Origin: Thermodesulfobacteriota bacterium
GTDB taxonomy: Bacteria > Desulfobacterota > Desulfobulbia > Desulfobulbales > SURF-16
Reading direction: 5' to 3'
DNA: 64,000 nt
NCBI GenBank assembly: GCA_039715015.1
Contig: JBDLIE010000001.1
Span: 32,001-96,000 of the forward strand
Notes under the pieces: model-generated
Database searches by the model: none
Seen by the model: the letters and a program-made list of their open reading frames with translations, nothing else
What the model was told of the DNA's origin: nothing
Translations under genes and position numbers: made by a program
Part shown: positions 2,691 through 40,509 of the stretch, one piece after another
How positions within the stretch are numbered: position 1 is the first letter of the stretch
Layout: every line of letters starts with the position of its first letter

Positions 2691-2693
2691 GGG

Positions 2694-11485: not shown

Positions 11486-11495
11486 TAAAGAAATT

Positions 11496-11613: not shown

Positions 11614-11632
11614 AGTATAAAAGGATTATCAC

Positions 11633-16819: not shown

Positions 16820-16977
16820 CTTTGGTAAGATCCGCTTCAGTCCGAAGGTCAGCTGTGAACAAAACAGCATTTTTCTTGAAATCTTGACCATGTTTTCTTC
16901 TTTGAGCAGCCATTGCTTCCTCCTGCCGGTTTCATAACAACGAATTAACTGAATTTTCACTCTTGGGGGGAGGAGCA
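16820..16977 (-). pseudogene. IS3-family left end and orfA 5' fragment
   Basis: Minus strand AGGAGG + MAAQRRKHGQDFKKNAVL...; closely similar to 19089-19216. Confidence 0.6.
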
Positions 16978-16979
16978 AT

Positions 16980-19974: not shown

Positions 19975-22900
19975 ATGAATAATGACTGTTTTGATCTGAC
20001 AAAAGAGCAAGAGGGCCTGTGGTTTGAATATAAACTGCGACCACAGGATACTTCATATAATGCTTACGTGATAACAAAGATAGAAGGCTTATTGGACCTG
20101 GAAAGGTTTCTTGAGGCAGAGTATGAATCTATAAATCACTTGTATACCCCGAGAACAAAATTACAAGAAAATGATAAAGGACATGTACAGCAGTATATTC
20201 TGCCAAAGGTGGAACAAAGGGCCTTGTACTTTGATCTGAGTGAATCAACATCTGAAGAAAGTTCGGATGCTCAGGCTAAAAAAATCATAAAAGAGATTGC
20301 TGATAAACCATTTGATCTTGAAAATGATAGGCTGCTAAGAACGGTCTTGGTCTGTGTGTCAGAAAAAAAGTTTTATTATATGACATGTCAGCACCATATT
20401 ATTTGTGATTCTTGGTCAGCTGGTATCTATCATAATGTTTTAGCGTATATTTATAATAATGGAACTGATGGCGTTCATTCCGTCTATCCTCAGAAGACTG
20501 TGAAGGAGTATTCGCAGGCGAGAGCTGAAATTGATGGCGGTGAAAGGGCTAAGGTAGACGCTGAAAAGTACTGGAGTGGCAGGCTGGATGGTGCGAAATT
20601 ACATTTTGATTTAGGTGTAAACTATGACCATCTTTTAAGTATCATGCGAAAGGAATTAAAATTTGTTTTAGGAGAAAAAATTAATGAGCAGCTGAAAGTT
20701 CTTGCACGTAAAAATAGAACAACACTGTTTTTAGTGCTGATGGCTATGATTAATGTTTTGCTCCATAGATATTGGTCAAAAAAAGATATCTGCATTGGGT
20801 ATGACGTTAACAGTAGGCCAAAGGGATTTAAAGAAGTTGCTGGCTACTTTATCAAAGTATTCCCCATGCGGATACTTGTTGAAGATGATGATACCTTTAC
20901 TAGTTTGGTCAAGAAAATAACTGAGGAGAGAAAGTCTGACTCAAAATATCAAAATATCTCCTTTCCTGAAATTGTAGAAAGCTATCGCAAAAAAGAGAAA
21001 TCAACAGGACATAATCTCAATATATTTTTGGGTCAGACTTCTTTTGAGCTAGATGGGATGAACTTGAATGAATTAGACTGTCAAACCGTAGACGTGTTTG
21101 CCGGTAGTATGAATTTGGATTTAGAGTTTACCTATGATCCAATATTAAATGAACTCCCATTTCTCTTGAGATATAACGGGAATAAGTTCTCTGATGATTT
21201 TATGTCCTGTTTAATCAAGAACTTTCAAGTATTAATTAACAGTGTCATTGATTGTCCTGATGCAAAACTTGCAAACCTTGATCTCATTGATTCAGAAGAG
21301 AAAAAAATACTTTTGGATGACTGGAATAACAATTCTGTTTATTCCCCTAGCGGTATCTCAGTTAATAAACTTTTTGAAGATCAAGTTGGTAAATCTCCCG
21401 ATAAGGTCGCGGTCATCTGTGGTGATGATGAAATTACATATGACGAGTTGAATAAAAGGTCGAATCGATTGGCGCGATATTTGTTGAGCCTGGGGGGGGG
21501 GCACACTGGTTTGGTGGGTGTCTATCTGTCGCGCTCAGTGGATATGGTAGTAGCACTCTTGGCAGTAATGAAAAGTGGAGCTGCATTTGTCCCATTAGAT
21601 CCGATATATCCACAGGATAGATTGAAGTTTGTGATCGAAAATAGTGCCCCTGAGCTGATTTTGACAGAGAGCAGTCTTGCGAAATCATTACCAGAAATTG
21701 GGCCTAATGTTGTTGTGCTGGATAATATTGCAGAAGATGCATTGTCTGGTGCCAGCTCTATAGATCTCCTTCCCGTTGCTCCTAGCGACAGGATGTATGT
21801 GATCTACACCTCCGGTTCAACCGGAGTTCCTAAAGGTGTGCAAATAAGCCATCGTAATGTTGTTAATTTCTTAAAATCCATGGAGAAGAGACCCGGGTTC
21901 ACTGGAGAAGATTCTCTTCTTGCTGTGACCACCATATCCTTTGATATTTCTGTCTTGGAGTTGTTTCTGCCCCTCATTGCCGGGGGGAGGGTGGTTGTCC
22001 TGTCGAGCGTAGATTCTATAAATGCTGAGTCAATCCAGTCAGCAATTAGTTGCCATAATATCACAGTCATGCAGGCCACTCCCTCCACGTGGCAGATGTT
22101 GGAAAATATCGGCTGGCAGGGTGATAAAGGTTTGAAGGTGTTGTGCGGGGGGGAGCCACTTCCATCGCTGTTGGCTTCTCGTTTGCTCGGGAAGGTCGGT
22201 TCGTTGTGGAATATGTATGGTCCAACGGAGACAACTATTTGGTCTACTCTGTCAGAGGTAAATGATCCTGAGCAAATATCTATTGGTAAGCCCATCGATA
22301 ACACAGAGATATATGTCCTCGACAGTAATTTGTCTTTATGTCCTGTTGGGGTGCCTGGATCCCTATACATTGGCGGTCAGGGGGTGTCTGAAGGGTATTT
22401 TAATCGTGATGAGCTAACAAGCGAGAGGTTTGTTGTTAATCCCTTCCTGGATGATCTTGGAGATATTATCTATAATACTGGCGATTTATGTCGTTATTTG
22501 CCGGATGGTAATATCGTCCATTTGGGGAGGATTGATAATCAAATAAAGCTTAGGGGGTACCGGATTGAGCTCGGCGAGATTGAGGCCGTGCTCTGTCAAC
22601 ATGAAGATGTGGAGCAAGCAGTCGTTGTTGTGTCTGGCGATACTCTCAGTGGCAGATATCTAGTCGCATACATTGTCCTTAGTCAAGATGGCCAAGGTGG
22701 TTTTCAACTTGACAGGTTGAAGGAGTTTGTTAGGGGGCGATTGCCGGAGTATATGATTCCTTTGGCATTTGTAGAATTGTTGGACTTGCCTTTGTTGCCA
22801 AACGGCAAGGTCGATAACAAAGCGTTGCCTGAACCGGACAACAAGACCGTTGCTGCTGAGACAAGCTACGTGCCACCCAAAAATGAAAATGAGAAAGTCA

Positions 22901-23199
22901 TATCCCAGATTTGGTCAGAAGTCCTCGGTAGAGATAAGATCGGCATGCATGATAATTTTTTCGACATGGGTGGGAACTCAATACTGTTAACGAAAATTTA
23001 TAGCAGGTTGCGGGGTGTATTGGATAGTCAGTTTGATCTTATTGATATGTTTAAGTATCCAACCGTTTATTCCTTTTTAAATAGTTTGAATGGTGCCGAG
23101 GCTGTTGTTCCTCTGCCAAGAAAGATGAGTGTTGGTGGCCGTAAGGCACGAATGTCTTCTATGAATCAAAAGCGTCGATCTAGAAAAAAATCCCATTAA
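19975..23199 (+). CDS. NRPS, C-A-PCP; A domain predicted to activate glycine
   Basis: C motif HHIICDSWS; A motifs YTSGSTGVPKG, NMYGPTE, YNTGDL, LPNGKVD; pocket residues read DILQLGMIWK (Gly-type); PCP GGNS. Confidence 0.92.
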   Translation: MNNDCFDLTKEQEGLWFEYKLRPQDTSYNAYVITKIEGLLDLERFLEAEYESINHLYTPRTKLQENDKGHVQQYILPKVEQRALYFDLSESTSEESSDAQAKKIIKEIADKPFDLENDRLLRTVLVCVSEKKFYYMTCQHHIICDSWSAGIYHNVLAYIYNNGTDGVHSVYPQKTVKEYSQARAEIDGGERAKVDAEKYWSGRLDGAKLHFDLGVNYDHLLSIMRKELKFVLGEKINEQLKVLARKNRTTLFLVLMAMINVLLHRYWSKKDICIGYDVNSRPKGFKEVAGYFIKVFPMRILVEDDDTFTSLVKKITEERKSDSKYQNISFPEIVESYRKKEKSTGHNLNIFLGQTSFELDGMNLNELDCQTVDVFAGSMNLDLEFTYDPILNELPFLLRYNGNKFSDDFMSCLIKNFQVLINSVIDCPDAKLANLDLIDSEEKKILLDDWNNNSVYSPSGISVNKLFEDQVGKSPDKVAVICGDDEITYDELNKRSNRLARYLLSLGGGHTGLVGVYLSRSVDMVVALLAVMKSGAAFVPLDPIYPQDRLKFVIENSAPELILTESSLAKSLPEIGPNVVVLDNIAEDALSGASSIDLLPVAPSDRMYVIYTSGSTGVPKGVQISHRNVVNFLKSMEKRPGFTGEDSLLAVTTISFDISVLELFLPLIAGGRVVVLSSVDSINAESIQSAISCHNITVMQATPSTWQMLENIGWQGDKGLKVLCGGEPLPSLLASRLLGKVGSLWNMYGPTETTIWSTLSEVNDPEQISIGKPIDNTEIYVLDSNLSLCPVGVPGSLYIGGQGVSEGYFNRDELTSERFVVNPFLDDLGDIIYNTGDLCRYLPDGNIVHLGRIDNQIKLRGYRIELGEIEAVLCQHEDVEQAVVVVSGDTLSGRYLVAYIVLSQDGQGGFQLDRLKEFVRGRLPEYMIPLAFVELLDLPLLPNGKVDNKALPEPDNKTVAAETSYVPPKNENEKVISQIWSEVLGRDKIGMHDNFFDMGGNSILLTKIYSRLRGVLDSQFDLIDMFKYPTVYSFLNSLNGAEAVVPLPRKMSVGGRKARMSSMNQKRRSRKKSH

Positions 23200-23262
23200 T
23201 TGTCTTCATTAGTAATTTTTGCCAATCAGTCAGTCTGTCCACTGTGGTTATAGGTATTGTAT

Positions 23263-26200
23263 ATGGAAGTAGAAGAAAATTCTAAAGAAGGGCATGTCGC
23301 AATAGTTGGCATGTCTTGTCGTTTTCCTGGTGCCTCTGATCTTGAATCTTTCTGGCAAAACTTGAAAAATGGCAAAGAGTCTATCGTGTCTTTTTCAGAT
23401 GACGAGCTAGAGGCAGCTGGGGTGCCTCCAGAGCTCATAGGTGATCCAGCGTATATTAAGGTCGGCTCAATATTGGATGATGTTGAAAAGTTTGATGCCG
23501 ATTTTTTTAATTTTAGCCCTAGAGAGGCAGAGATTCTAGATCCGCAGCAGCGAATATTTCTAGAATGCTCTTGGGAGGCCCTTGAAAATGCAGGTTGTTG
23601 CAGTGATTATTACGATGGGGTGATCAGTGTCTTTGCCGGTCAGGGAATTAATACCTATATGCTTGGTAACCTATCGAATTTAGATAGAACCACTAATGAT
23701 AAATTCGATTTTTTCACGGCAAATGATAAGGATTTTCTGGCAACACGCGTTTCCTATAAGTTGAACTTAAAGGGACCCAGTCTGACAGTGCAATCGGCGT
23801 GCTCTACTTCCATGGTAGCCGTTCATTTAGCATGCCAAAGTTTGCAAATTGGTGAAAGCGATATGGCGTTAGCTGGTGGGGTGTCTGTCCGAGTTCCGCA
23901 GGTTGAAGGGTATCTTCATACTGGCGGCTATCCGCTGTCTGCAGACGGTCATTGTTGTACGTTTGATGAGAGTGCAAATGGTACGGTCTTTGGTAATGGT
24001 GCCGGTGTTATCGTCTTAAAACGTCTTGAAGATGCAATTGAGGAAAACGATCATGTCTATGCCGTTGTGCGGTCCATTGCGATTAATAACGACGGGTCGT
24101 CTAAAATTGGTTTTACCGCCCCCAGTGTTCAAGGTCAGGCTTCCGTCATTATTGAAGCCCATGAGTTGGCAGAGGTTAATCCTGGGTCAATAACGTATGT
24201 GGAGGCTCACGGCACAGGTACTGAGATGGGTGATCCCATAGAGGTCTCAGCCCTCACAGAGGCCTTTCGGGCAAATACATCTGGAAAAGGCTTTTGTGCC
24301 ATTGGCTCACTGAAGACCAATGTGGGACATATGGATACTGCGGCCGGGGTGGGTGCAATAATCAAAACTGCCCTGTCCTTGCAAAACAAGATGATCCCGC
24401 CAAGTTTAAATTTTAAAAAACCTAACCCCAATATTGATTTTGAAAACAGCCCGTTTTATGTTAATGCCGAGCTACAGGACTGGAAGGTTCCAGGCGGCAT
24501 GCCTCGGAGAGCCGGTGTAAGTGCTTTTGGGATAGGGGGGACCAACTCACACCTCATCTTGGAGGAATCTCCTCCTGCTGGTTCTTCAGGGAAGAGTCGG
24601 CCATGGCAGATAGTTACCCTGTCGGCGCGTAGCGAAGCGGCTCTGGATAAAATGACCTCAAATCTGGCTTCATTTCTTGAGGGTAATGGTGCCATCAATC
24701 TTTCAGACATTGCATATACCTTAAATACAGGCAGGAAAACATTTAACTATAAACGAGTGTGTGTTGTTGATGATGTTGATAATGCCATTACGAGTTTGGA
24801 AACCCTTGATCGAAAGAGTGTTTTTACTACGTATAGCGACTCAAGTAATTCAAGAATAGTTTTTATGTTCCCCGGCCAAGATTCAATATATCTGAATATG
24901 GGGTCTGATCTATATGCCAATGAGCCGGTGTTTAAGTATCATGTCGATTATTGTGCTGACAAGTTAATGGCTCATCTCGGTGTTGATATTCGCGATATCC
25001 TCTTTTGCTCCGATAGTTCTCTTGATGACGAAGATGGTGGCAGGTTTGGCAATATTCGCTTTATGCAGCCAATTGTATTTGTTTTTGAATATGCCTTGGC
25101 AAGGTTGTGGATGGCGTGTGGTGTTAAACCTGATGCTATGGTTGGTCATAGCATAGGGGAATATGTTGCGGCATGTTTGTCTGAAGTTATGTCCCTTGAT
25201 GATGCCCTGGATATAGTGGCGTATAGGGGAGATTTGCTAGAAAAACTCCCTGATGGCAAAAATATAGCAGTTTCTCTTTCAGAGAAGGACACCCAAAAAT
25301 ATCTAACAGAAAAACTGTCAATAGCAGTTATTACAACATCATCTCTCTGTGTGGTTTCTGGCCGAGATGATGACGTCAACGCACTGGAGCAAAGGTTGCA
25401 AGGGGATGGTGTTGACTATAAGTCGTTAAACATTCCCAAGGCCGCCCATTCCATATTGATGGAGCCCATTATTGAGCCTCTTCGCGACAAATTTAAGAAT
25501 ATTGAGTTGAATCCCCCTAAGGTACCCTTTGTTTCATGCATAACAGGTGAATGGATACAACCTGAACAGGCAGTTGATCCTAATTATTGGGCTATGCACG
25601 TGAGGAACACGGTGCGTTTTGCTGACGCCATAAGGACAATAGCGGACCAGGAAGAGCAAATTTTTGTTGAGGTCGGTCCTGGCAGGGCGTTGAGCTCCTT
25701 GGTCAAATTGCATGTAGGGCGAAGATCTAAACACGTCGTCCTCACCTCAAGCCGTAACCCCCAGAGCGATGAATGTGACGACGAGTTTTTTTTGAAGAAT
25801 CTCGGTAAGGTTTGGCTGACCGGCATCAGTGTTGACTGGCGGCAGTATTATGAGGATGAAAAACGTCACCGTATCCCATTGCCAACCTATCCCTTTGAGC
25901 GCAAGCGTTTTTGGGTAGAGTCTTCTGGTTATTCTCCTGCCCCTAAATCCAAAGAAAAAAAAGCGAGTGTCGATGAATGTCTGTTTGCGCCCTCGTGGAA
26001 AAGATCTGGTCCCCTTACGCTACGAACTGACTTTGAAGGGGATGAGGGGTGGTTGGTGTTTAGTGATGGTGCTGGTTTATCTCGGCAGGTATCTGAGCGG
26101 TTGTTGGCTGGTAAGCATCATGTGATGGATGTGCGACAGGGGATTGGGTTGGCTGAAGAGCCCGTTAATGATGCATATCACTGCGATAGCAGGGATGAAG

Positions 26201-27924
26201 AAGCTTGTTGCTCGTTAATACGTGCGATTGGTGAATCGGGTAAGAAAATTGACAAGGTCCTGTTCTTCTTGAGTCCCTCAATGGGTGATGGAGGGCTGGC
26301 TGCATTATCTGGAGACAATATTAATCACTACCTTGAGCACTCTTTTTTTAGTTTACTAAATATTGTTCGCGCCCTTGAGATTTATCAAGAGAACGAAGTT
26401 CAGGTCAATGTGGTGTCACGGTGTGCATCTGTTGTTACGGGTGATGAGGATGTGGATCCATTTCATGCGGTTGTGGCATCCATGGTCAGAGTTGTTCATA
26501 ACGAATCCTTGAAAATTAAATGCCGAAATATTGACTTTAACATTGATCAAGGCCGTACTTTCTTCAGTGATCGTGAGTTGGAGCAGTTACTGCGCGAGCT
26601 GCCCTGTGAAATTGATGCACGATTGGTCGCATATCGAGGGCAATATAGGTGGACGCAGTGTTTTGAGAAGCTGACACCTCTTGGAGATGATCTGGGTACA
26701 ACTTCTGTCAAAGATGGCGGAGTGTATCTGATTACCGGAGGGTTGGCTGGGATTGGCTATATTCTCGCAAAACATGTTGCGAAGCAAGGTCGTGTGACTC
26801 TGGTTCTTGCTGAGGAGGCATGTTTGCCAAACCAGGAGGAATGGCAAGGATGGATTGACAGCCATGGAGATGACCATAAGACAAGCGTGAAAATTAAAAG
26901 AATCATAGAGCTCCAGAATCAGGGCAGTCATATTGTTGTGCATCCGGTTGATATATCAAGTTTTAAGGAAATGACAGAGGTGGTAACTCAAATAAAAGAT
27001 GAATTCGGTGCTGTGGATGGAGTTATCCATGCTGCGGGTAAACCATGTTTGTCAGGCTTTATCGGCCAGACACGAGAGGTTGCCGACAACATTTTTAATG
27101 ACAAGATCAAGGGAGCAATTGTTTTGGGGAAAGCCATTGATGGTGAATCTCTTGATTTCTTCATTCTATGTTCATCCATTTCTTCTGTGGATGGATCCAT
27201 AGGTAAAATTGTAAATAGCTCAGCTGATGCCTTTCTGGATTCCTTTGCTCATATGGGACTCTTGGGGGCTGAAAATGTCACGACGAGTGTTAACTTCGAT
27301 ACGGTTGAAGGCTGCATGCATGAGTATCAAAGCCTAAATGGATTATCTGGTGATGCAGATGCTGGAGAGTCTCAAGGGCCTGTTTCCCTAAATAGGTATT
27401 CGGAATACCTTAATCATCATATGGATATGGCTTTGAAGGAAGAAGAGGTTGGAAATATTTTCGACCAGATTGTTGGTGCCTCTTTGCCTCAAATTGTAGT
27501 CTCAACCAGAGATGTAGATCGTCGCAAGGAAGAGAACGGTAATTTTAGTAAAATTACCTCAGGTGCGGTGGAGGCGTTAGGTGACGGAAGTAGGTACGAT
27601 CGACCTCAATTGGATAATTCGTACGAGGCTCCTGAAAGTCCAACAGAGGTGCTTCTTGCCGGGATTTGGGAGGAAGTTCTGGGTATCGATAAGATTGGTG
27701 TGTACGACAGTTTCTTTGATTTGGGAGGGAATTCGTTGTTGGCGACAAGAGTAATATCCAGAATAAGAGAAACATTTGGTGTGACTGTTCCTGTGAAAAG
27801 CTTGTTTAATTATCTCTATATTCGGGATTTGTCCAAATTGATCGTAGATCAAAGGAGCCAGGGTAATGAAGAAGTTTCTGTTAGCTCTGGTATCGTGAAA
27901 CAAAAAAAGAAAATAACTGTATAG
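23263..27924 (+). CDS. Type I cis-AT PKS, KS-AT-KR(probably inactive)-ACP
   Basis: KS VQSACSTS, HGTGT, NVGH and hybrid-KS NDKD; AT GHSIG and KAAHS; KR TGGLAGIG without catalytic Tyr; ACP GGNS. ATG 23263 preferred over TTG 23257. Confidence 0.92.
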   Translation: MEVEENSKEGHVAIVGMSCRFPGASDLESFWQNLKNGKESIVSFSDDELEAAGVPPELIGDPAYIKVGSILDDVEKFDADFFNFSPREAEILDPQQRIFLECSWEALENAGCCSDYYDGVISVFAGQGINTYMLGNLSNLDRTTNDKFDFFTANDKDFLATRVSYKLNLKGPSLTVQSACSTSMVAVHLACQSLQIGESDMALAGGVSVRVPQVEGYLHTGGYPLSADGHCCTFDESANGTVFGNGAGVIVLKRLEDAIEENDHVYAVVRSIAINNDGSSKIGFTAPSVQGQASVIIEAHELAEVNPGSITYVEAHGTGTEMGDPIEVSALTEAFRANTSGKGFCAIGSLKTNVGHMDTAAGVGAIIKTALSLQNKMIPPSLNFKKPNPNIDFENSPFYVNAELQDWKVPGGMPRRAGVSAFGIGGTNSHLILEESPPAGSSGKSRPWQIVTLSARSEAALDKMTSNLASFLEGNGAINLSDIAYTLNTGRKTFNYKRVCVVDDVDNAITSLETLDRKSVFTTYSDSSNSRIVFMFPGQDSIYLNMGSDLYANEPVFKYHVDYCADKLMAHLGVDIRDILFCSDSSLDDEDGGRFGNIRFMQPIVFVFEYALARLWMACGVKPDAMVGHSIGEYVAACLSEVMSLDDALDIVAYRGDLLEKLPDGKNIAVSLSEKDTQKYLTEKLSIAVITTSSLCVVSGRDDDVNALEQRLQGDGVDYKSLNIPKAAHSILMEPIIEPLRDKFKNIELNPPKVPFVSCITGEWIQPEQAVDPNYWAMHVRNTVRFADAIRTIADQEEQIFVEVGPGRALSSLVKLHVGRRSKHVVLTSSRNPQSDECDDEFFLKNLGKVWLTGISVDWRQYYEDEKRHRIPLPTYPFERKRFWVESSGYSPAPKSKEKKASVDECLFAPSWKRSGPLTLRTDFEGDEGWLVFSDGAGLSRQVSERLLAGKHHVMDVRQGIGLAEEPVNDAYHCDSRDEEACCSLIRAIGESGKKIDKVLFFLSPSMGDGGLAALSGDNINHYLEHSFFSLLNIVRALEIYQENEVQVNVVSRCASVVTGDEDVDPFHAVVASMVRVVHNESLKIKCRNIDFNIDQGRTFFSDRELEQLLRELPCEIDARLVAYRGQYRWTQCFEKLTPLGDDLGTTSVKDGGVYLITGGLAGIGYILAKHVAKQGRVTLVLAEEACLPNQEEWQGWIDSHGDDHKTSVKIKRIIELQNQGSHIVVHPVDISSFKEMTEVVTQIKDEFGAVDGVIHAAGKPCLSGFIGQTREVADNIFNDKIKGAIVLGKAIDGESLDFFILCSSISSVDGSIGKIVNSSADAFLDSFAHMGLLGAENVTTSVNFDTVEGCMHEYQSLNGLSGDADAGESQGPVSLNRYSEYLNHHMDMALKEEEVGNIFDQIVGASLPQIVVSTRDVDRRKEENGNFSKITSGAVEALGDGSRYDRPQLDNSYEAPESPTEVLLAGIWEEVLGIDKIGVYDSFFDLGGNSLLATRVISRIRETFGVTVPVKSLFNYLYIRDLSKLIVDQRSQGNEEVSVSSGIVKQKKKITV

Positions 27925-28156
27925 GAGTGTTTGTATAAATTTCAGGGTGTGTAGTTATGTAAGTTGTCCTGGTAAATTATAATTGGTCTCTTGTTCTTGA
28001 TCAATTTTCTTTGGTTCGCATGTGGTATGTGTATTGATAGTTTAAGTCTGGTGCATATGTAATACATTAAAAAGTGATGGTTGTTTGTCGTTGTTACGTT
28101 AGTAGGTAAGAAGTTCTTGCCTGTTCTGAAATATCAAATCTTATGGAGATGCGGCG

Positions 28157-31100: not shown

Positions 31101-34100
31101 CTGAATTTAACGGCTACTCTGAGGATGATGTAAACCTTAGCTGGCTTCCCATGGATCATGTGGTGCCGACACTCACGGTGCATCTAAAAGATGTATTCAT
31201 GCAGAATCTTTCGATCCAGGTGAAAACTAACTACATCCTGCAGGATCCTCTTAACTGGCTGCGGTTAATGGAAAAACATAAGGTGAATCTCACCTGGGCT
31301 CCCAATTTTGCCTATAAATTGATCACTGAAAGTCTGGAGCGAGATCCTGATTTCAGTGTTGATTTGTCAAAGGTGAGATTTTTCATGAATGCAGGAGAGC
31401 AGGTGACTCGACCTGTAATTGATGCATTCATAGAAGTAGTAAGTAAGTTTGGCATAGTTCCTTCAGTACTGCAGCCAAGCTTTGGTATGGCAGAAGCCTG
31501 TACATGCATGACATTTAATAATAATTATAACAATGTCTCCTCTGTGTTTAGGGCGAAGAAGTCTTCTCTACAAGAAACTTTTTTGAAAGAAACTGATGGT
31601 GAAGATCAGCTGTATACTGAATTTATTAATTTGGGATTACCTGTTCCGGGCATCGAAATTCGGATTACGGATGAACAAAACAATGTCGTTCCTGAACGGG
31701 TAATTGGACGATTTCAGATTCGCGGCGATGTTATTACTCCTGGATATTATAAGAGGCCTGAGGCAAATAAAGAGGCCTTTGTCGGAGATGAGTGGTTCAA
31801 CTCCGGAGATATAGGTTTTATTCATAATTCAAGCCTGTATCTCACCGGTCGCGAGAAAGAGACTATTGTTGTCCGTGGGGCAAATATATACTGTTATGAA
31901 GTAGAGGATATCGTCAATTCAGTTGAAGGAGTGTTGCCAACCTTTACTGCTGCATGCAGTATGAATGATCCGGTTACGGGTACGGAGTCTCTAGCCGTAT
32001 TATTTGTGGTAAATGAAGAGTCAATGGTCCATCAGCCACAGGTTGATTGGCATATTATTAATACTATTAAGATTGATGTCAGTAAGCGTATCGGTCTTAG
32101 CCCGTCATATATTGTTCCAATAGCTAAAGATGATTTTCTGAAGACAACCAGTGGCAAAATTCAACGTTCGCAAATGGCCATTAATCTTGCCGATGGCAAG
32201 TACAGCGGTATACAAAAAGAAATAGAGTGTTTCTTCTCCGATGACCAAACTACGTTACCGGTGTGGTTTTACAAGGAGGAACTGAGGCCAGCTCCTGTCG
32301 ATCATGTGGGTGGTCAAAATGGAGCAGGTAGGTATCTTTTATTTCTTAAGGAAGGCGATGCCGTAAATCAACTCGTGTTGGCGCAAGTGGAAAAGCTGGG
32401 AGGCCAAGCATATGTGATATATGCAGCGGACTCTTACGAAGAGGTAAGTGCTTCATGCTGGAGAATTAATCCTCGGAATTATGAAGATTACCTCAAAGTC
32501 TTCGAAGCCCTTAATCTAAGCACCCTGGATAAGGTTAAAGTTCTCCACTTATGGACAGTGGCAGAAGATGAGTTGGAGGAATACAACGAGTTATCTATGG
32601 AGAGGTCTCAGTCCATAGGATTGAATAGCATTTTAAATGTAGTTAAAAGTTGTCGAGGTCTTGGCTGTGAAGTTGATATGTCAGTCGTTTCCGTGGGCAT
32701 AAAGTACGGCAATACTGGAAAGATTGTCCCTGTCCACGCGTCGATGCTTGGTTTTGTCAAGAGTGTAAGTCAAGAGATGGCCAATATTAGGACCAGATAC
32801 ATTGAAGTAGATACCTTTGATAATATGACCGAGAAGTGTCTTGATACTATTTTCAGTGATATCAATCAGAATAAATTTGAGCATAAAGATGTTGTATATG
32901 TTGATGGCAAAAGATGTATCAGTGGCTTAAGGCCTGTTCTCGTGACCAAAGAATCAACACAAAAAGAAGTGTATGGTCGAGGGTCTACCTATCTTGTTTT
33001 AGGTGGAATGGGTGGTGTTGGTAAAGAGTTGGTTGCTGATTTGGTGAGTCGAGAAGCTGGCAAAGTTTATGTAGTCGGCAGAAAAGAAATTTCTCAGCTG
33101 GATAATGCGTCATTAAGTTTCCTCAATAGGTATTCAGGAGAAGTTACATATGTCACTGGTGACATATGTAACATTGAACAGTTGCAGTTAGTTTTTGAGG
33201 AGGTGTCTCCTAAATTTATCGACAGTATAGACATGGTGATAAATCTAGCTGGTTCTTATGAGGAGAAGTCTGCTGAGGATTATGACAACCATTCTTTATG
33301 GGAAAGTATACGAACCAAAATGGTTGGCGCCTACACCCTTCATCGCCTTTTCAGAAATTCGAAAAAGGCTAAATTTGTTCATTTCTCATCTGTTAATGGT
33401 TTTTTTGGTGGCTTTCAAGTTGGAGCATATTCTGCCTCTAATAGTTTTCTTGAGGCATTTAGTGCTTATCAACGAAATAATGGTGTGCAGAGTTATTGTC
33501 TGGCTTATTCTTTGTGGAAAAACACAGGGATGAGCGCTGATTTTTCAGCGCACGAGGCAAGTAAAAAGAAAGGGTTTTGGCCAATTGCCGCGAGGCAGGG
33601 TGTGTCAAGCACTGAGCTTATGTTGGGGCAAGAGCCGTCAACTTATTTTATAGGACTTGATGAATCAAAAGGAGCCTTGCAAGAGTATATCGTTGATCGG
33701 GATAGGCAGAGGCGTTCAACAAAGTATGCCTATCATTTGCCTGAGCGTAGCCGGTTATTGCTGAGTAAAAATTTTACATGTAGAGCTTCGCATACCTCTA
33801 TTCTTGATAGTTCTAACTTGCTGCCCAATGGCAAGATTTTTCTACGCGATAAACACTCTCAATTTTCAGACCTTAAAATGTTTGGCGATATTCTTGTCGG
33901 TGATGACCCCGGTGGCGTTAATGGAAATTGTCAACAGGTGCAGGGGAAGTCATATGCTGAAATTGGAATGAGGGGGATTTTGCGGGAGAAAAGTAGTGTT
34001 TCTGTGTGTTCCTCTAGCGGCACTGTCGATATCGGAGGTTATAGGCTCAATATAGAAAATGTAGAAAAGCTCTTAAAGTCTCTCTGGCAGAATGACGAGG

Positions 34101-35515
34101 TCGCGCTGGCTCGGCATGACTTTGCCGGTTCACGAGAGCTTGTTGTTTATGTTGTGTCTTCTGGTCCTGAACGTGAGAACGGAAAGCATTATGTGTTGCC
34201 CATGGATAATATGGCCAATTTCATAAAAACGACAGTTGTCGAAATTGATGAGTTTCCGCTTGTGGATGGCGCAATTGATTTTGATTCTCTCTTTCGGGAG
34301 AATTTTAATAAAAATAACAAATTGGTTGCGCCGCAAACACCTGAACAGAAGATGCTAGCGAAGATTTGGAAGGATGTTCTTAGTATAGACCAGGTTGGTA
34401 TTTATGATAACTTTTTTGAGGTTGGCGGAAGTAGCTTAAAGGCCATCGAGTTAATTCAAAAAATTAATACTCAATTTGATATAGAATTGCCAATCGCAAG
34501 CCTTATGACCACGCCAGTAATCGCTGAGATTGCTAAAACCATAAGTCTCATGTCAGACTCAAATTACTCAAAGAACTTAGTGCCACTCCGAGCAGATGGG
34601 GACAAGAACCCTCTCTTTGTCTGTCCTCCCGGTGATGGGAATGTCTATATCTATAAAGATATGATAGAGGGGATCGATAATGATATCCCAATATATGGTT
34701 TTGCCTTGGACAATAAAATTGTTGATGAGACAACAGGTATATCAGATCTTGCCAGTCGATTTGTCGGTGAAATCAAGATGGTTCAAAAGGATGGCCCGTA
34801 TATGATTGGCGGGTTTTGTAATGGTGGAATTATTGCCTATGAAATAGTTCGGCTTCTAGAGGCCCAGGGGGATGAGGTTGGGTCGTTATTCCTGCTTGAT
34901 AGCAGTTCCCCCGATATAGCAAAGATGGAATTGTCACATTTGCCTGAGGAGTTCCGGTTTGCAATATTTCTAAAGGTGTTTGGTGGAATACAGAACGTGA
35001 ATATTGTGGAATTATGGGAGGAATATTTCCAGAAGGGCAACTCTGCTGAATATTCTAAAATGGATATGATAGAGCATATCAAAACTATGACTGACGACGA
35101 AAGGTTATCGGTCTTGTTTAAAATTATTTCTTCCCGGGGAATATTGGATTCTGAAGACGGGTATGTTGTTCTTACGCAAGTCTATAAAATTTATAATTAT
35201 TATGTTGAGTCGTTAAGAAATTTCTCTTGTTGTGATACGAAGTTAAATACTCAAACTGTGCTCTATAGATGCACGGAAAGTATTTACGATAAGGATGATG
35301 AGAATCTAGCCGAGCAAGTCCAATATGATTTCCTAAAAAATATTTTCAATACGAATGATGATGACTTGGGATGGCGTGAATACATTAACGATTTGGGCAC
35401 TCAGAATATTGCATGTAATCATTTTGAATTGATGAGAGGCCCATATGTTCAAGATGTTACCCGAGATATCGAGAAGAATTTTGAAGAAGTATCAGAAAGT
35501 GCAGTAGTTGCTTAA
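28157..35515 (+). CDS. NRPS: docking domain-C-A(degenerate, split)-A(alpha-keto acid type)-KR-PCP-TE
   Basis: TubC-N-like start, C HHIISDGWS, dead A (YGFSDHGEAQG), active A (LTSGSTGTPK, WLPMDHVV, KTTSGKIQR), KR (GGMGGVG, GAYSASN), PCP GGSS, TE GFCNG. Confidence 0.9.
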   Translation: MQQFLSGLLKKGVVVSSVNQQLEIDSFGAEIDDADIALLKKYKKQIVDFLSNKKVSIATYNQERLWFLDQLDDVARYNIPVAYSINGSFDLSVLERSLQAIVDRHESFRVGFRAIDGYPVQLIDPSLTFSVTHHDISSKSKGQQSLLLENIATAEIHSPFNLEKPPLLRVTVVKAGTDEYVLIINMHHIISDGWSVGVFVNELAASYNAAISGKAVNLPELQLQVSDYASWERHNVSEKSLEEQLSYWVENLKGYSGVLDMPTDYPRPERQSGQGKRAVFDVPGELVSKLKTVAVENSASMYMVVFSAIYVVLRRYSQQNDICIGTPVAKRDKVELENLIGFFSNTLPVRVNTPDNCTFNSLLASVKDSVLDAYGNQEVPFDQIVNKVLSSRDFSRNPIFQVMIAYQNISSSDFDLVANETESLSGKDYYKSAKFDLLFNVEDDGDSLEVAIEYSTDLYAADTVNLYQKALISILEGFCSDIGVEVDRVPLGSTWGQNEISSCWCGSGDAEDHAPSSQALADFLDIRGDGAAISGGDADISYAELDQKCDAVCSGLLSMSGVTDTTVGIYGEHGVDEIIAMLGVLKSGLSYVKLRKDMPDALLQKIIEDSSVQIILKSGHDSDEGLLDAFPGLSCYMIEDLYAGDISGKVEVQADTTSSAAVYYGFSDHGEAQGVRYTYDNMLEMISSYDHEMAVGMADEIFLVDIHVLSCLQNKKKYVIPSKNVDFYKDKYGSLIYHSQDVVESFSVKQTPEELLECASSMGPQDAGVDLANMPVAYSNGGEQIIPPDAPKTLIEALISASMSDNMHGILAIDERGNEKFQSYSNLFLEAKKVASGLRKHGIAPRTAAILQVESLEQHFSAFWGCVLCGVIPVTIAIAPIYEKNQTVVQKLINIWKLLDNPCLISSATNRDDIVNVIRDSESKECQVVKIDDLLNNEEIDDIYQAKPDDVIFYQLTSGSTGTPKCIQETHRAIISHILAAAEFNGYSEDDVNLSWLPMDHVVPTLTVHLKDVFMQNLSIQVKTNYILQDPLNWLRLMEKHKVNLTWAPNFAYKLITESLERDPDFSVDLSKVRFFMNAGEQVTRPVIDAFIEVVSKFGIVPSVLQPSFGMAEACTCMTFNNNYNNVSSVFRAKKSSLQETFLKETDGEDQLYTEFINLGLPVPGIEIRITDEQNNVVPERVIGRFQIRGDVITPGYYKRPEANKEAFVGDEWFNSGDIGFIHNSSLYLTGREKETIVVRGANIYCYEVEDIVNSVEGVLPTFTAACSMNDPVTGTESLAVLFVVNEESMVHQPQVDWHIINTIKIDVSKRIGLSPSYIVPIAKDDFLKTTSGKIQRSQMAINLADGKYSGIQKEIECFFSDDQTTLPVWFYKEELRPAPVDHVGGQNGAGRYLLFLKEGDAVNQLVLAQVEKLGGQAYVIYAADSYEEVSASCWRINPRNYEDYLKVFEALNLSTLDKVKVLHLWTVAEDELEEYNELSMERSQSIGLNSILNVVKSCRGLGCEVDMSVVSVGIKYGNTGKIVPVHASMLGFVKSVSQEMANIRTRYIEVDTFDNMTEKCLDTIFSDINQNKFEHKDVVYVDGKRCISGLRPVLVTKESTQKEVYGRGSTYLVLGGMGGVGKELVADLVSREAGKVYVVGRKEISQLDNASLSFLNRYSGEVTYVTGDICNIEQLQLVFEEVSPKFIDSIDMVINLAGSYEEKSAEDYDNHSLWESIRTKMVGAYTLHRLFRNSKKAKFVHFSSVNGFFGGFQVGAYSASNSFLEAFSAYQRNNGVQSYCLAYSLWKNTGMSADFSAHEASKKKGFWPIAARQGVSSTELMLGQEPSTYFIGLDESKGALQEYIVDRDRQRRSTKYAYHLPERSRLLLSKNFTCRASHTSILDSSNLLPNGKIFLRDKHSQFSDLKMFGDILVGDDPGGVNGNCQQVQGKSYAEIGMRGILREKSSVSVCSSSGTVDIGGYRLNIENVEKLLKSLWQNDEVALARHDFAGSRELVVYVVSSGPERENGKHYVLPMDNMANFIKTTVVEIDEFPLVDGAIDFDSLFRENFNKNNKLVAPQTPEQKMLAKIWKDVLSIDQVGIYDNFFEVGGSSLKAIELIQKINTQFDIELPIASLMTTPVIAEIAKTISLMSDSNYSKNLVPLRADGDKNPLFVCPPGDGNVYIYKDMIEGIDNDIPIYGFALDNKIVDETTGISDLASRFVGEIKMVQKDGPYMIGGFCNGGIIAYEIVRLLEAQGDEVGSLFLLDSSSPDIAKMELSHLPEEFRFAIFLKVFGGIQNVNIVELWEEYFQKGNSAEYSKMDMIEHIKTMTDDERLSVLFKIISSRGILDSEDGYVVLTQVYKIYNYYVESLRNFSCCDTKLNTQTVLYRCTESIYDKDDENLAEQVQYDFLKNIFNTNDDDLGWREYINDLGTQNIACNHFELMRGPYVQDVTRDIEKNFEEVSESAVVA

Positions 35516-35651
35516 TAGACTGCTGGCATGATTTTGGTGGGGAGCAGGTAATAGGCTTGTTTTTTCATTTGTCCTGCATAGTGGATCTTTGTTCAGAGAG
35601 ATCTCTGTTCGTCCTTTAAAAAAGGCACATCTTTGTGTTGAGGTAAGTCAT

Positions 35652-36800
35652 ATGGGAATTTGTAAGAGTTGTGTTATGCCTGTGAAAAAAAACGGGTCAA
35701 CATGTAAAGAGTGTAATGACTTTGTTGCTTTCGATGTCGATTGGAAACAAAAAGAAATCGAATTTAAAAATGTGTTTGATAAACAAAAGGGCAAAGGAAA
35801 ATACGACTGTATGGTTCTCCTCACGGGGGGGAAAGATAGTAGTTTTGTTCTGTATTACATGACAAAGGTTATAGGGGCGAGGGTCTTGGCTTTTACCTGG
35901 GATAATGGATTTATACGAGACCAATCATGGGAAAATATGAGAAATGCTGTTGAGGCAACAGGATGTGATCATGAGGTGTTTAAATATGATCCTGCCAAGT
36001 TGAAAACATTGTTTAGATCGACGTTTAAGATGATGGGCAGTTGTTGTTTCTGCCCGACGATATCCAGCATGTCTGCGCTCAGCACTGCTGCTAAACATGA
36101 CATACCAATGATCATGACGGGTTTTTCTGAGGGGCAAAGGTTTTGCGATCACTCATATGATATGCCGACCCCTGGTGATCAGCGCAAGATGATCCTTAAA
36201 TTTTATAAACTCATGAAAAATTTCTTTATCATTCCTTTAAGAAAACATGAACCTGATCTCGCGGATGAAACCCATCGCCATATCATGGCTCCGCTTACCT
36301 CTTATGTTCAGAGTATAGATGCAGGCAAGACCTATCCTGCTTTGGTGCCGTTATCAAATTATGTTGATTGGACTTCTTCTGGAAGTCTTGAAGAGATTTT
36401 AAGTAAGAATTTGAATTGGGTAAAACCTTCCAAGGCAATTACCCGAACCAGTTGTTTTATCGAGCCCATCAAAGGATATTTCGAACACCAAAAGAAAGGC
36501 TTGAATACAGCATCCGAGATAAGTTGTTTGATCAGGATTGGCGCGGTAACAAGAGAGGATGGCCTAGCTGAGTTGAATAAGATGTATGTCGATGGAACGA
36601 GGCCAGACAGCACCACCATCGAAAAATTTATCAATTTTTTGGGTATCACCGAGGCGGAATTTGATCATTACGGCACGAAACGTGTGTCACTGTTCTCTAA
36701 GATTAAATATCTGTTTCTACTTAAAAATGCCATGGACATCATGCATTGGATTTTGGGAACCTCAAAGGCCAAGGCCAAAAGATTTATTCCTGGAATATGA
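35652..36800 (+). CDS. PP-loop ATP pyrophosphatase, N-acetyl-sugar amidotransferase (WbuX)-like
   Basis: N-terminal CKSC...CKEC, PP-loop LTGGKDSS, WDNGF, late LIRIGAVTREDGL; ATG 35652 after GAGG. Confidence 0.7.
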   Translation: MGICKSCVMPVKKNGSTCKECNDFVAFDVDWKQKEIEFKNVFDKQKGKGKYDCMVLLTGGKDSSFVLYYMTKVIGARVLAFTWDNGFIRDQSWENMRNAVEATGCDHEVFKYDPAKLKTLFRSTFKMMGSCCFCPTISSMSALSTAAKHDIPMIMTGFSEGQRFCDHSYDMPTPGDQRKMILKFYKLMKNFFIIPLRKHEPDLADETHRHIMAPLTSYVQSIDAGKTYPALVPLSNYVDWTSSGSLEEILSKNLNWVKPSKAITRTSCFIEPIKGYFEHQKKGLNTASEISCLIRIGAVTREDGLAELNKMYVDGTRPDSTTIEKFINFLGITEAEFDHYGTKRVSLFSKIKYLFLLKNAMDIMHWILGTSKAKAKRFIPGI

Positions 36801-36944
36801 AACACGATGGGCGTAATGATTTTCGATTCAAGCATGGCAAATGTAGTGCAGCAAAAAGTGCTGGATACATTTTCTTATCGTTATGACACCTTTTTGAAAA
36901 ATGTAGCAAATCGGTAGTCGGCAGGTTGATTGTTCACTTGGCCT

Positions 36945-36983
36945 CTTGTGCCCTATACCATTGTGGGGTGGGGCACAGGTTTT
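36945..36983 (+). terminator. Intrinsic terminator-like hairpin inside the cluster
   Basis: CTTGTGCCCTAT...GTGGGGCACAGG followed by TTTT. Confidence 0.5.
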
Positions 36984-37076
36984 GCTGAGAAGACACTGTC
37001 CGTAGCTTTTTTTATTGCTCTAAAATTAATTTTAAGGACCATGTTTTCGAGGAATTGTCCTTGTTGGGAGAGATGA

Positions 37077-38321
37077 ATGGGTAAAGATTTTTATGAAATA
37101 GGTGAAATTCCGGAATTGGGTGTAGTTCCAAAGTACATGTTGGCAAGCTGCCTGAGGAGGGAGCGGTATGGTAAGCCAATAAATGCCTTAAAGACCGAAA
37201 AGGTGCCTGTGCCAACAAGCCTTAAACCAGATGAAGTGCTCGTATATGTGATGGCGGCTGGTGTGAACTATAACGTTATATGGGCCAGCAATTCTTATCC
37301 TATTGATGTCTTAAAGGCCGCTAATGCACGTGGCGAAACATTTGATTATTTTATTCCTGGTAGCGATGCCTCGGGCGTGGTCTGGAAAGTTGGAACTGAT
37401 GTGGAAAATGTCAAAGTCGGGGACCATGTTATATTGCATGGTGGTCGCTGGAATGTGGATGCTGCAGATGTCAAAAAGGGGGAAGATCCTACTTTTTCGG
37501 CAAGCTATCACATGTGGGGCTATGAAACCAATCATGGTGCCCTTGCTCAATATACAAAAGTTATGAGCCATCAATGCTTGTTGAAACCTAAAGACTTGCC
37601 TTGGTCAAAAGCGGGTTGTTTTATGGTAGGTGCTGCCGCAGCATACCGAATGCTCCATGGTTGGGAACCGCACACTTTAAATGCTGATGATCCTGTTCTT
37701 GTTTGGGGTGGATCCGGGGGGTTAGGTGGTTTCGGTATTCAATTATGTAAGTTAGCTGGGGCACGAGCTGTCGCAGTAGTCTCAAGTGAAGATAAAAAGG
37801 ATTATTGCAAAAAACTCGGAGCTGTCGGTGTGATCAACAGGAAAGATTTTGATCATTGGGGAAGAATGCCCGAAACTGACGATACGAAAAACTATAGAAA
37901 ATGGCTGATCGGTGTGAAAAAATTCAGGCGTGCTTTTTGGGAGGCAATTGGTGAAAAGGTAGATCCTATTGTTGTTTTCGAGCACCCCGGCGAGGACACC
38001 ATTCCGACATCTGTGACCATGGCAGCACGAGGTGGAATGATTGTTTTTTGTGCTGCGACCAGCGGCTTTTATTCTAACTTTGACCTGCGCTATCAATGGG
38101 TGCATCAGAAACGCTTGCAGGGAACCCATTTTGCAAACACAGAGCAATGTCAGGAAGTGGTTAACTTGGTGGGGGATGGGGAAATTGATCCATGTTTGAC
38201 AAAGGTGTTTGGCTTTGAGGAAACAGCCCAGGCCCATCAGCTGATGGCAGACGGGAATAATTATTTCGGCAATATGGGCATATTGGTCAATGCTGCAACA
38301 GCTGAACAAGTAAGCCTGTAG
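37077..38321 (+). CDS. ccrA: Crotonyl-CoA carboxylase/reductase
   Basis: KDFYEIGEIPELG, VMAAGVNYN, WGYETN, VFEHPGE, DLRYQWVHQKRLQGTHFAN. Confidence 0.92.
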   Translation: MGKDFYEIGEIPELGVVPKYMLASCLRRERYGKPINALKTEKVPVPTSLKPDEVLVYVMAAGVNYNVIWASNSYPIDVLKAANARGETFDYFIPGSDASGVVWKVGTDVENVKVGDHVILHGGRWNVDAADVKKGEDPTFSASYHMWGYETNHGALAQYTKVMSHQCLLKPKDLPWSKAGCFMVGAAAAYRMLHGWEPHTLNADDPVLVWGGSGGLGGFGIQLCKLAGARAVAVVSSEDKKDYCKKLGAVGVINRKDFDHWGRMPETDDTKNYRKWLIGVKKFRRAFWEAIGEKVDPIVVFEHPGEDTIPTSVTMAARGGMIVFCAATSGFYSNFDLRYQWVHQKRLQGTHFANTEQCQEVVNLVGDGEIDPCLTKVFGFEETAQAHQLMADGNNYFGNMGILVNAATAEQVSL

Positions 38322-38441
38322 GGGGTCACGTGAGGTGCAACGGTTAGCCGGCAAGTGTTGGTTGGTCGGTGAGCGTATATATTTCGCACGAAACGGCGAA
38401 GAACATTAATATTAGTCCATCAAGCTTCAGTTTAGTAATTC

Positions 38442-39191
38442 ATGATTGCTCATTCTCTACGTGCATCTTTGGCGGAACAAGCTCATGTGTATACAATTAA
38501 CCTTGAGCAAGGTAAAGAGCTGTCAAGTTCTGTTCGCAACCGATACGAGTCAATCTTATCGTCAGATGAATTAGACAGTTGCAATAGGTTTCATTTTGAG
38601 CGTGATAGATGCAGACGTCTTATAGCACATGCTAATCTCAGAATTGTTCTTTCAAAGTATGTAGATGTAGATCCTCCAGATTGGATTTTTGAATATAATA
38701 GGTTCGGGCGCCCGGAAATAGCCCGAACGTTGGGAGTATCCGACCTCCGCTTTAACATATCATATTCGGATGACCTGCTGGTTATCTTAGTGAATAATAT
38801 AATTGACGGCGGTATTGATGTTGAGCGAACAGATGGTGTAGATGATCCCATGCAGTTGGGACAGAGCGTTTTTTCCCCTTATGAGATTGATATACTACAA
38901 AGATATCAAAATGATGGTTCGTGCCGAACGCGTTTTTTTGAATACTGGACACTCAAAGAGGCTTTTGTGAAGGCTAGGGGGGTGGGGCTTTCTGTGCCGC
39001 TAAATCAATTTAGTTTCAGTATTGATATCAATAATAAGGTGCAAATAGATTTTTCAAGTAAATTAAATAACAACCCCCTCACTTGGCAATTTCTTCTTGA
39101 ATATCCGACATCAAACCACGTAATTGGAGTGGCCCTTCGTCGCGGTTATCACCCTGATTTGTCTATAATCCTGCGAAACTTGATAATATAG
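38442..39191 (+). CDS. Sfp-type 4'-phosphopantetheinyl transferase
   Basis: FGRPEI, FNISYS, GIDVE, WTLKEAFVKARGVGL. Confidence 0.92.
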   Translation: MIAHSLRASLAEQAHVYTINLEQGKELSSSVRNRYESILSSDELDSCNRFHFERDRCRRLIAHANLRIVLSKYVDVDPPDWIFEYNRFGRPEIARTLGVSDLRFNISYSDDLLVILVNNIIDGGIDVERTDGVDDPMQLGQSVFSPYEIDILQRYQNDGSCRTRFFEYWTLKEAFVKARGVGLSVPLNQFSFSIDINNKVQIDFSSKLNNNPLTWQFLLEYPTSNHVIGVALRRGYHPDLSIILRNLII

Positions 39192-39211
39192 CGCCTGAGA
39201 GGAGGGCAGAG

Positions 39212-39886
39212 ATGGCAGAAGTTGCAGTTTATCCTATTAAGAATCGCAAAAGTGCTTTTAAGAATTTTACTTACTTAATTAAAGAGGAAAAAACTTCTGA
39301 AGCCGTAATTGTTGATCCCGCGGGCAATTTAAGACAACTTCTTGCGAAAATAGGTGATACGGGATCTGATATCAAGGCAGTTTTGCTAACGCATTATCAT
39401 GATGATCATATAAACTTGGCTGGATCCATCAGTCAGAAGTACCACATGCCAGTTTATATGTGCAAAAGCGAAGTTGATGCCTATGGATTCCGGTGTAAAA
39501 ACTTGGAAGCGATTGAAAACGAATTTTTTTTACATGTTCAAATATTTATGTAAAACCTTTATTTACGCCAGGTCACACGAAGGGCAGTACCTGTTATCAA
39601 ATTGCCGACAACTTGTTTAGCGGCGACACGCTCTTTATCGAAGGCTGCGGATTATGCAAGGGGTACGGTGCCAGCCCTGAAGCAATGTATTATAGTTTGA
39701 AGAAGTTGGTGAAATGTCTTTCGCAAGATACCCGTATTTATCCAGGCCATTCATATGGTGAGTTGCTTGGCGTATTTTTTGATTATCTTTTAAATAATAA
39801 TATTTATCTAAATATTATTAATCTCGAACAATTTGTCGCATTTCGCGATGCGAAAAGAACAGGTTGACTGCTATGATTTCAAGTAA
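39212..39886 (+). pseudogene. PksB/BaeB-like MBL-fold hydrolase with two apparent frameshifts
   Basis: THYHDDH in the first frame; after the T8 run (39524-39531) a shifted frame gives FTPGHTKGS..LFSGDTLFIEGCG..YPGHSYG; a second shift near 39847 restores the end FRMRKEQVDCYDFK*. Confidence 0.75.
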
Positions 39887-39892
39887 TTTTTG

Positions 39893-39932
39893 AACATCCC
39901 CTTTGGCACGAAACCAAGGGGATGTTGCTTTT
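39893..39932. terminator. Terminator between convergent genes
   Basis: AACATCCCCTTTGG...CCAAGGGGATGTT followed by GCTTTT. Confidence 0.7.
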
Positions 39933-39961
39933 AACTCCCAACTGGGAGCAGATGTCTAACG

Positions 39962-40357: not shown

Positions 40358-40509
40358 AATGTCTCCTGAGGGAAAAATCTATGATCACTGACTGTTACGG
40401 ATGACTTTACATATGTTTATACATTATCCATTGTTAATGTTTTATAAAAGTGGCAGATGCGACACAAATGGGTGGTGAATGCGCCACCCAAAGGAAAAAT
40501 ACCGGAGAA

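Follow-up and report, generated by a model that had tools for sequence, protein, structure and literature searches.

The chlorosphaerolactylate pathways cly and noc (PMC7923214) end in a single protein, ClyF or NocQ, in which condensation (C), keto-acid adenylation (A), ketoreductase (KR), thiolation (T) and thioesterase (TE) domains follow a polyketide synthase (PKS) and give an acyl lactate ester. In the oxazolomycin, conglobatin and phthoxazolin pathways (OzmO-P-Q, CongA-E-B and PtxE-D-C; PMC4504003, PMC5764310, PMC9057759), a glycine-loading nonribosomal peptide synthetase (NRPS) is joined to a ketone-retaining PKS step and to an N-type ATP pyrophosphatase of 360–380 aa with the motif [ST]GGKDS (OzmP, CongE or PtxD); conversion of an N-formyl-glycyl ketide to the oxazole is the proposed, undemonstrated role of this enzyme (PMC4504003, PMC5764310), and from 2015 to 2020 ring closure was described as unproven for all three products (PMC4504003, PMC5764310, PMC9057759). 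A homologous PP-loop domain, the AMDH of CysH and AlbIV, has been shown to act on a carrier-bound amide by dehydration or rearrangement, giving nitriles, and is the only PP-loop family member with demonstrated NRPS chemistry in the literature examined (PMC7966384). Here we describe a hybrid NRPS-PKS cluster at positions 19975–39886 of a 64,000-nucleotide stretch (the window) of a Thermodesulfobacteriota genome (assembly GCA_039715015.1, contig JBDLIE010000001.1, positions 32,001 to 96,000). Every part of this cluster has precedent in the cly, ozm/cong/ptx, antimycin/splenocin (ant/spn) or cys/alb systems, and searches of genomes, plasmids, proteins and the open literature, MIBiG not among them, did not turn up the combination.

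Judging from the domain calls, the line probably builds a backbone of acyl-glycine, one alkylmalonyl unit and a lactate ester, the azole step being left aside. An earlier note on this DNA had proposed an N-acyl-glycine extended by an alkylmalonyl unit and esterified to an α-hydroxy acid, and this backbone is upheld and narrowed to lactate, from the ClyF-like pocket, with probably an ethyl branch. More tentatively, the product may be a 2-substituted oxazol-5-yl-(ethyl)acetate ester of lactate, with the oxazole closed by the PP-loop enzyme and ATP, and with release by an unusual Cys TE. The domain layouts given in the note also hold (Table 1): C-A(Gly)-T for NRPS1, by Pfam domains and the glycine code; ketosynthase (KS)-acyltransferase (AT)-KR0-acyl carrier protein (ACP) for the PKS; C-A0-A(keto)-KR-T-TE(Cys) for NRPS2; a crotonyl-CoA carboxylase/reductase (Ccr; TIGR01751 at 491.5 bits against a cut-off of 378.55); and an Sfp-type phosphopantetheinyl transferase. 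As for its docking cues, the basic C-terminal tail of NRPS1 and the hybrid-KS NDKD motif are present, while the TubC-N-like start of NRPS2 is a real match (TubC_N, E 4.4e-5) that stays below the cut-off (23.9 versus 26 bits).

Table 1. Features of the cluster (window coordinates).
Feature	Position	Strand	Remarks
NRPS1, 1074 aa	19975..23199	+	divergent N-terminal C (HHIICDS), A(Gly), T (Ser1002), basic C-terminal tail; Pfam
Hybrid PKS, KS-AT-KR0-ACP	23263..27924	+	KR predicted redox-inactive
NRPS2, 2452 aa	28157..35515	+	TubC_N-like dock, C, degenerate A (Ax), keto-acid A, KR, T, Cys TE
Free-standing PP-loop (AANH) ATP pyrophosphatase, 382 aa	35652..36800	+	TGGKDS, conserved Cys set; WbuX/AMDH/OzmP superfamily
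Ccr	37077..38321	+	TIGR01751 above cut-off
Sfp-type phosphopantetheinyl transferase	38442..39191	+	sole match to the query in the host genome
SolJ/PksB-like metallo-β-lactamase (MBL)-fold hydrolase gene, frameshifted	39212..39886	+	NF041804 match in both halves
Terminator-like stem-loop ending the operon	39899..39921	+	consensus match only

In NRPS1, the A-domain code DILQLGMIWK fits the established Stachelhaus rules for glycine and is so assigned. The preceding C domain keeps the HHxxxD motif (HHIICD), shares no more than 31% identity with any sequence fetched, and is closer to SrfAC-type C domains (E 6e-31) than to entries 7C1H and 7C1K (E 1e-8 to 3e-9), which we take to be starter C domains. 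Its best match, a Cysteiniphilum plasmid C-A-T-R NRPS (31%), was set aside because of its unrelated gene context, and a profile search that started from NRPS1 returned so many multimodular NRPSs that it was of no use.

In the PKS, whose reading frame opens at TTG 23257 with a better ribosome-binding site ahead of ATG 23263, the KS (Cys182/His318/His358) and the AT (Ser632, Arg657) are intact; in the KR, the catalytic Tyr and Asn are replaced by Asn1320 and Asp1324, so that the ketone should survive. The AT motif is KAAH, with Ile at the usual Gln, and the best Protein Data Bank (PDB) matches are ZmaA 4QBU (GAAH) and 5YDA (AAAH), beside which the Lys is unusual. The three AT positions concerned are named as governing bulky extenders (PMC6164871). 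The nearest PDB match of Ccr is AntE (E 5e-141), with Phe in place of AntE Val350 as in the Ccr of 4GI2, and the V350G change widens acceptance in AntE (PMC6164871); a three-residue specificity scheme for Ccr was not confirmed in PMC10176493, and only the comparison at Val350 is used here. The extender is thus probably a short alkylmalonyl-CoA, by these residues one with a probable ethyl branch. The antimycin and splenocin systems (AntC-D-E, SpnD) likewise combine a keto-acid module, a broad AT with an xAAH motif (5YDA) and a dedicated Ccr, whereas their formamidosalicylate starter is absent here and the Phe sets our Ccr apart. Their modules run from amino acid to lactate and then alkylmalonate, the reverse of the order seen here.

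The A-KR part of NRPS2 finds its best PDB match in StsA (6ULW, E 1.8e-171). Its keto-acid A domain carries Val1002 at the Asp235 position and a Gly1110-Met1111 motif, in a pocket reading VVLWMAS; an unannotated Tistrella module, which we take to be the pyruvate-loading DidB, reads VVLWIAE. The KR between A and T is catalytically intact by its motifs (GGMGGVG, GAYSASN), and the T domain has Ser2093. ClyF and NocQ share the Val for Asp235, the Gly-Met motif and a near-identical pocket, and the spacing of ClyF Val1007/Gly1115/Met1116 is that of the three residues here; feeding with 13C-pyruvate supports pyruvate as the substrate of ClyF (PMC7923214). As a ClyF orthologue we took WP_016949098 (P0040) from Anabaena PCC 7108, on account of its size, an accession three numbers from that of the ClyC homologue, and the statement that the strain has clyA-F (PMC7923214). 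NRPS2 is 33% identical to this protein over 1949 aligned positions, and the two fall in a common clade (support 0.91, 55 of the 85 tips). Because VVLWMAS is nearly identical to the pocket of P0040 (VVLWMAA; KR motif GAYAAAN) and differs from that of CesA/CesB (VGVW), lactate is most likely the hydroxy acid; PMC8068249 yielded no pocket codes for this comparison. A dead A domain with a degenerate A3 also stands before the keto-acid domain in the C-Ax-KAL-KR-T modules Dol15D-M2, HctF-M1, HapC and PyrG, for which the named substrates are branched or aromatic keto acids (PMC13643306), whereas the module here has a pyruvate-type pocket and ends in a Cys TE. In cly, a halogenated fatty acid is supplied through a FAAL (fatty acyl-AMP ligase) and ACP to a dead PKS (PMC7923214); our cluster contains none of the FAAL-ACP-halogenase genes, and has instead a glycine module, a KS-AT that is catalytically intact by sequence, Ccr and the PP-loop gene.

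The TE differs from that of the PCC 7108 ClyF-type protein, which has Ser (GWSLG), in its motif GFCNG and predicted triad Cys2221-Asp2248-His2422. The nucleophile is Cys in ours alone of 67 matches (52 Ser, 14 unread). The strained-ring TEs of ObiF1 and SulM also use Cys; a Cys-Asn pair is noted for SulTE, and the uncharacterised AB3403 has its Asp at the usual position (PMC11298585). Our TE combines the Cys-Asn of SulTE with Asp2248 at the usual position I, as in AB3403; a single-sequence model of the TE (pLDDT 44) was too poor to judge position II. Since lactate offers no β-nucleophile, release as a β-lactone in the manner of ObiF1 is unlikely.

The gene most likely to alter the product class, through azole formation, is that of the PP-loop enzyme, an AANH protein with TGGKDS that the earlier note had listed without giving it a role. 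The protein scores 151.9 bits against WbuX TIGR03573, below the curated cut-off of 203.2, and its predicted model (pLDDT 90.5) best fits 8WEX (Z 23.2, root-mean-square deviation 4.4, 318 aligned), so that its best family and fold matches are both N-acetyl sugar amidotransferases. Together with its near relatives it forms a compact subfamily (about 33 sequence clusters), found in one of 400 other genomes of the phylum. Of the 162 fetched loci, 70 have the homologous domain fused into an A domain, with an Asn code in 63 of them, which is the arrangement of CysH and AlbIV (PMC7966384); ours is free-standing, and the cluster has no Asn code.

In a genus judged Streptomyces-like, in part from its SsgA copies, the subfamily profile found matches in 15 of 401 genomes, nine of them free-standing genes directly before a KS (51–58% to ours) and preceded by a Gly-type A domain (44–52%). 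Eight of these nine loci were fetched more widely; of the six NRPSs scanned, four begin with a formyltransferase, in the ozmO-P-Q order, and two with a C domain, which sets a precedent for a C-initiated glycine module beside the PP-loop family. The gene order and protein sizes match those of ozmO-P-Q (1196, 382 and 842 aa; PMC9057759), and it is by order and size, rather than by name, that we recognised OzmP-type sequences; two short candidate motifs for OzmP matched no stored protein, disagreed with the OzmP-type proteins found, and were dropped. Profiles of our subfamily and of the OzmP type align over 255 columns (HH 98.9%, E 1.3e-17) with the PP-loop and Cys positions kept, although the two form separate clades with 26–30% identity over the N-terminal half. 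The ozm, cong and ptx lines start with a formyl group from an F domain, use malonate and a KS-ACP without KR, and place the PP-loop gene between NRPS and KS with a long polyketide downstream (PMC4504003, PMC5764310, PMC9057759), whereas our cluster has a C-domain starter, an alkylmalonate, a KR0, and the PP-loop gene after NRPS2. By the tree and profile scores given below, our protein is not an OzmP orthologue. By analogy, it may work like OzmP, since the N-acyl-glycyl amide beside the kept ketone is the only amide that the line would make, and the glycine code with the dead KR would present the substrate class proposed for CongE and PtxD (PMC4504003, PMC5764310). Two of the oxazolomycin-like clusters (L233/L234, G1421:C12; L227, G1298:C4) have a glycine module that begins with C instead of a formyltransferase; curromycins carry a 2-methyl oxazole (PMC9057759), and these two are candidate pathways of the curromycin type.

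In the first step of the predicted pathway, the C domain of NRPS1 would N-acylate the glycyl thioester on T with a host acyl-CoA or acyl-ACP, and the PKS would then add a short alkylmalonyl-CoA made by Ccr, most likely ethylmalonyl-CoA, the defective KR leaving the ketone. The PP-loop enzyme, with ATP, would activate the amide oxygen of the α-acylamino ketone and so yield a 2,5-disubstituted oxazole, as proposed for OzmP, CongE and PtxD. NRPS2 would activate pyruvate, a substrate suggested by the likeness to ClyF, reduce it to the lactyl thioester and esterify the chain onto it, whereupon the Cys TE would free the acyl lactylate by hydrolysis or form a 3,3-disubstituted 5-methyl-furan-2,4-dione by a Dieckmann-type closure. 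For illustration, an acetyl starter and an ethyl branch would give an oxazole acid C11H15NO5 (241.095), or C11H17NO6 (259.106) if uncyclised. We also entertain, as a rather unlikely extension, a minimal and independently assembled azole line, in which a new WbuX-derived PP-loop subfamily, recruited apart from OzmP, turns the acyl-glycyl ketone into the 2,5-disubstituted oxazole (a thiazole if sulfide takes part) without Ser, Thr, Cys or a Cy domain, and the Cys TE then closes a quaternary-carbon tetronate onto the lactate.

A number of observations weigh against this pathway. No starter supply (FAAL, free ACP or other starter gene) lies within the cluster, and between the C domain of NRPS1 and those of the two OzmO-like proteins that begin with C, identity is only 22%. 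About 60 of about 85 listed, mostly uncharacterised domains share the pocket VVLWMA(S/A) (hand count), and feeding evidence for it comes, in the literature examined, from the ClyF line only (PMC7923214). A tree of 116 sequences places our PP-loop subfamily (support 0.98) among generic WbuX-like proteins and not as the sister group of the OzmP type, the deep nodes being weak; on our profile, OzmP-type proteins score lowest (47–58 bits, versus 101–152 for AMDH-fused ones). The closest relatives with context (L009/L010, L011, L012/L013, L123, L206/L207) have FabF-type, chorismate-binding or B12 radical-SAM neighbours and no glycine module, which suggests that the subfamily usually does something else, and the oxazole role of OzmP and CongE is itself only proposed (PMC4504003, PMC5764310).

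The best-surviving alternative, which we hold to be doubtful, keeps the same backbone open and forms no azole: the PP-loop enzyme would use ammonia, giving a WbuX-type amidine or a C-terminal amide or nitrile, and the Cys TE would hydrolyse the chain, make a tetronate or, with a 3-hydroxyacyl starter, close a 12-membered depsipeptide. Such a ring would have the size of that of hapalosin. The amidotransferase matches and the WbuX-like position in the tree speak for it, as do the nitrile-forming AMDH (PMC7966384) and the unusual rings formed by the Cys TEs of ObiF1 and SulM, given our SulTE-like Cys-Asn pair (PMC11298585). On the other side, the cluster has no glutaminase, AsnB-like gene, sugar-pathway gene or Asn module, and the retention of a dead KR beside the glycine module suits a ring closure that depends on the ketone.

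Whether the locus is functional bears on a further alternative, namely that the cluster is a decaying passenger yielding little or no product in its host, which we consider improbable. The co-oriented, AT-richer genes of the earlier note are seven, as claimed, with a GC content of 40–46% in each intact gene against 50.2% genome-wide, and six are intact, spanning 19975–39191. The seventh, called a PksB-like hydrolase, is indeed of the SolJ type by NF041804, with the frameshift missed: a first frame of 113 aa covers model positions 2–104, and after a T8 run at 39524–39531 another frame covers positions 112–212. A 24.6-kb contig from sequencing run X1 (depth 63), which possibly is the source sample and is not an independent isolate, covers 20600–40500 without gaps and has identical letters at the break, which speaks against an assembler slip; two neighbouring bases of this contig, at 23034–23035 in the T-domain region of NRPS1, depart from the window. 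Decay would also fit an operon without starter gene, transporter or dedicated regulator, the tandem IS200-family transposase genes upstream (15528–15965 and 16280–16714), and a cluster not found in relatives. Against it, the six other genes are uninterrupted over 19 kb with catalytic residues intact, and the sole break is one homopolymer run that can also be read as a slippery heptamer, T-TTT-TTA; low-level read-through by slippage is possible from the sequence, with no significant downstream fold at the run (z −0.25). The only listed sequencing run with the cluster is a marine metagenome, and no RNA run with it is listed.

About as improbable is the view that the PP-loop enzyme is a sulfur transferase converting the N-acyl-glycine amide to a thioamide, which might condense with the ketone to a 2,5-disubstituted thiazole. 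Behind 8WEX, the next-best folds are those of the thiolases NcsA, TtuA and LarE (Z 10.2–10.8), and three Cys (C124, C126 and C260, P0001 numbering) are invariant in all 32 subfamily members compared; one subfamily copy, in G016, adjoins ThiF and has a rhodanese gene about 5 kb away. However, these Z values are at superfamily level and tied with those of NAD synthetases and TilS, AMDH and OzmP-type proteins have equivalent Cys residues, and ThiF, ThiS and cysteine desulfurase were not found in the cluster. The weakest proposal, that there is no N-acyl starter, C1 being structural and the Cys TE joining the free glycyl amine to the lactyl thioester of another unit in a cyclo-oligomeric depsipeptide, agrees with the missing starter gene and the closeness of C1 to SrfAC-type C domains, and is very doubtful, as the HHxxxD motif is intact, the PP-loop enzyme would have no role, and free 4-amino-3-oxo thioesters self-condense or cyclise.

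The simplest reading of the origin of the cluster is horizontal acquisition. In tetranucleotide usage it lies farther from the genome (distance 0.288) than any of 104 fixed 20-kb windows (maximum 0.241, median 0.096), a contrast that favours the cluster somewhat, as the windows are not aligned to it. No NRPS, modular PKS, Ccr or Sfp-type match occurs elsewhere in the host genome (G000, scored 99.99% complete). The cluster DNA was found in none of seven other genomes of the genus (84–99% complete), the A-KR didomain in none of 400 other genomes of the order (two candidates scored per genome; the A part alone matched in 56, at 26–33% identity), and Ccr in none of 200. In G004, about 5.6 kb separate the flanking Bat/MoxR operon and AraC gene, which in the host stand about 32 kb apart, and the ends of the island show no tRNA, Rfam match or terminal repeat. 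There was no full-length NRPS2 orthologue among 82 matches (best 37–41% over about 55% of the searched region), no plasmid record covering 80% of NRPS2 among 667, no Ccr and no three-gene order at any of 174 PP-loop-anchored loci, and no matching pathway in the open-access literature. A Spirochaetales pair, P0071 (sister keto-acid A) and P0110 (PP-loop subfamily), was rejected as one cluster since the two lie on separate contigs. The unfamiliar order remarked on earlier thus needs dividing: the architecture of NRPS2 is known from ClyF/NocQ and the C-Ax-KAL-KR-T modules, and the three-gene order with its tailoring set was not found in the searched data.

The cluster has so far been seen once and touches, through one link that can be tested, on an open question of mechanism. 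In this three-module system, an OzmP homologue meets the same type of substrate, which could allow the chemistry of the family to be tested, and the product would be an additional small-molecule scaffold, coming from an uncultured marine lineage in whose sampled relatives these genes are absent. An independently assembled azole line, if true, would be both a new scaffold and a small, manageable system for proving the OzmP-type mechanism; if the PP-loop enzyme acts otherwise, this is an orphan hybrid cluster of known parts, one among very many.

Several other PP-loop loci were recorded. At L009/L010 (G016:C31), two subfamily copies lie with ThiF, several FabF-type KSs, FabZ, FabG, an AT-less PKS and an adenylate-forming enzyme. 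AMDH-like domains occur in A domains with the non-Asn codes DARHLALMV, DAQDIGVVD and DAQDLGVVD at L148, L196 and L199, respectively, L148 having two such modules after KS-KR. In Methanosarcinales (L032, L059, L066–L068, L071, L075 and L088), a free-standing homologue stands directly 3′ of an adenylate-forming enzyme, and a plasmid cluster of the Bacillus cereus group (L096) combines a homologue with three ACPs, two adenylate-forming enzymes, FabF/FabZ/FabG, AsnB, a phosphopantetheinyl transferase and a radical SAM enzyme. Elsewhere in the window, the genus-conserved MoxR-DUF58-vWA-TPR-BatD (Bat) operon at 61–8807 forms the left edge of the variable region, and a repeat of about 100 nt at 11480–11615, with several copies across genomes of the genus, has no Rfam match. 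A gene for a GDSL lipase whose N-terminus is hydrophobic (17610–18629) is flanked by a 130-nt direct repeat (16849–16978 and 19088–19217, 86% identity) that resembles a transposase remnant; as cly likewise has an adjoining lipase gene (PMC7923214), a link of this lipase to the cluster is, by analogy, possible.

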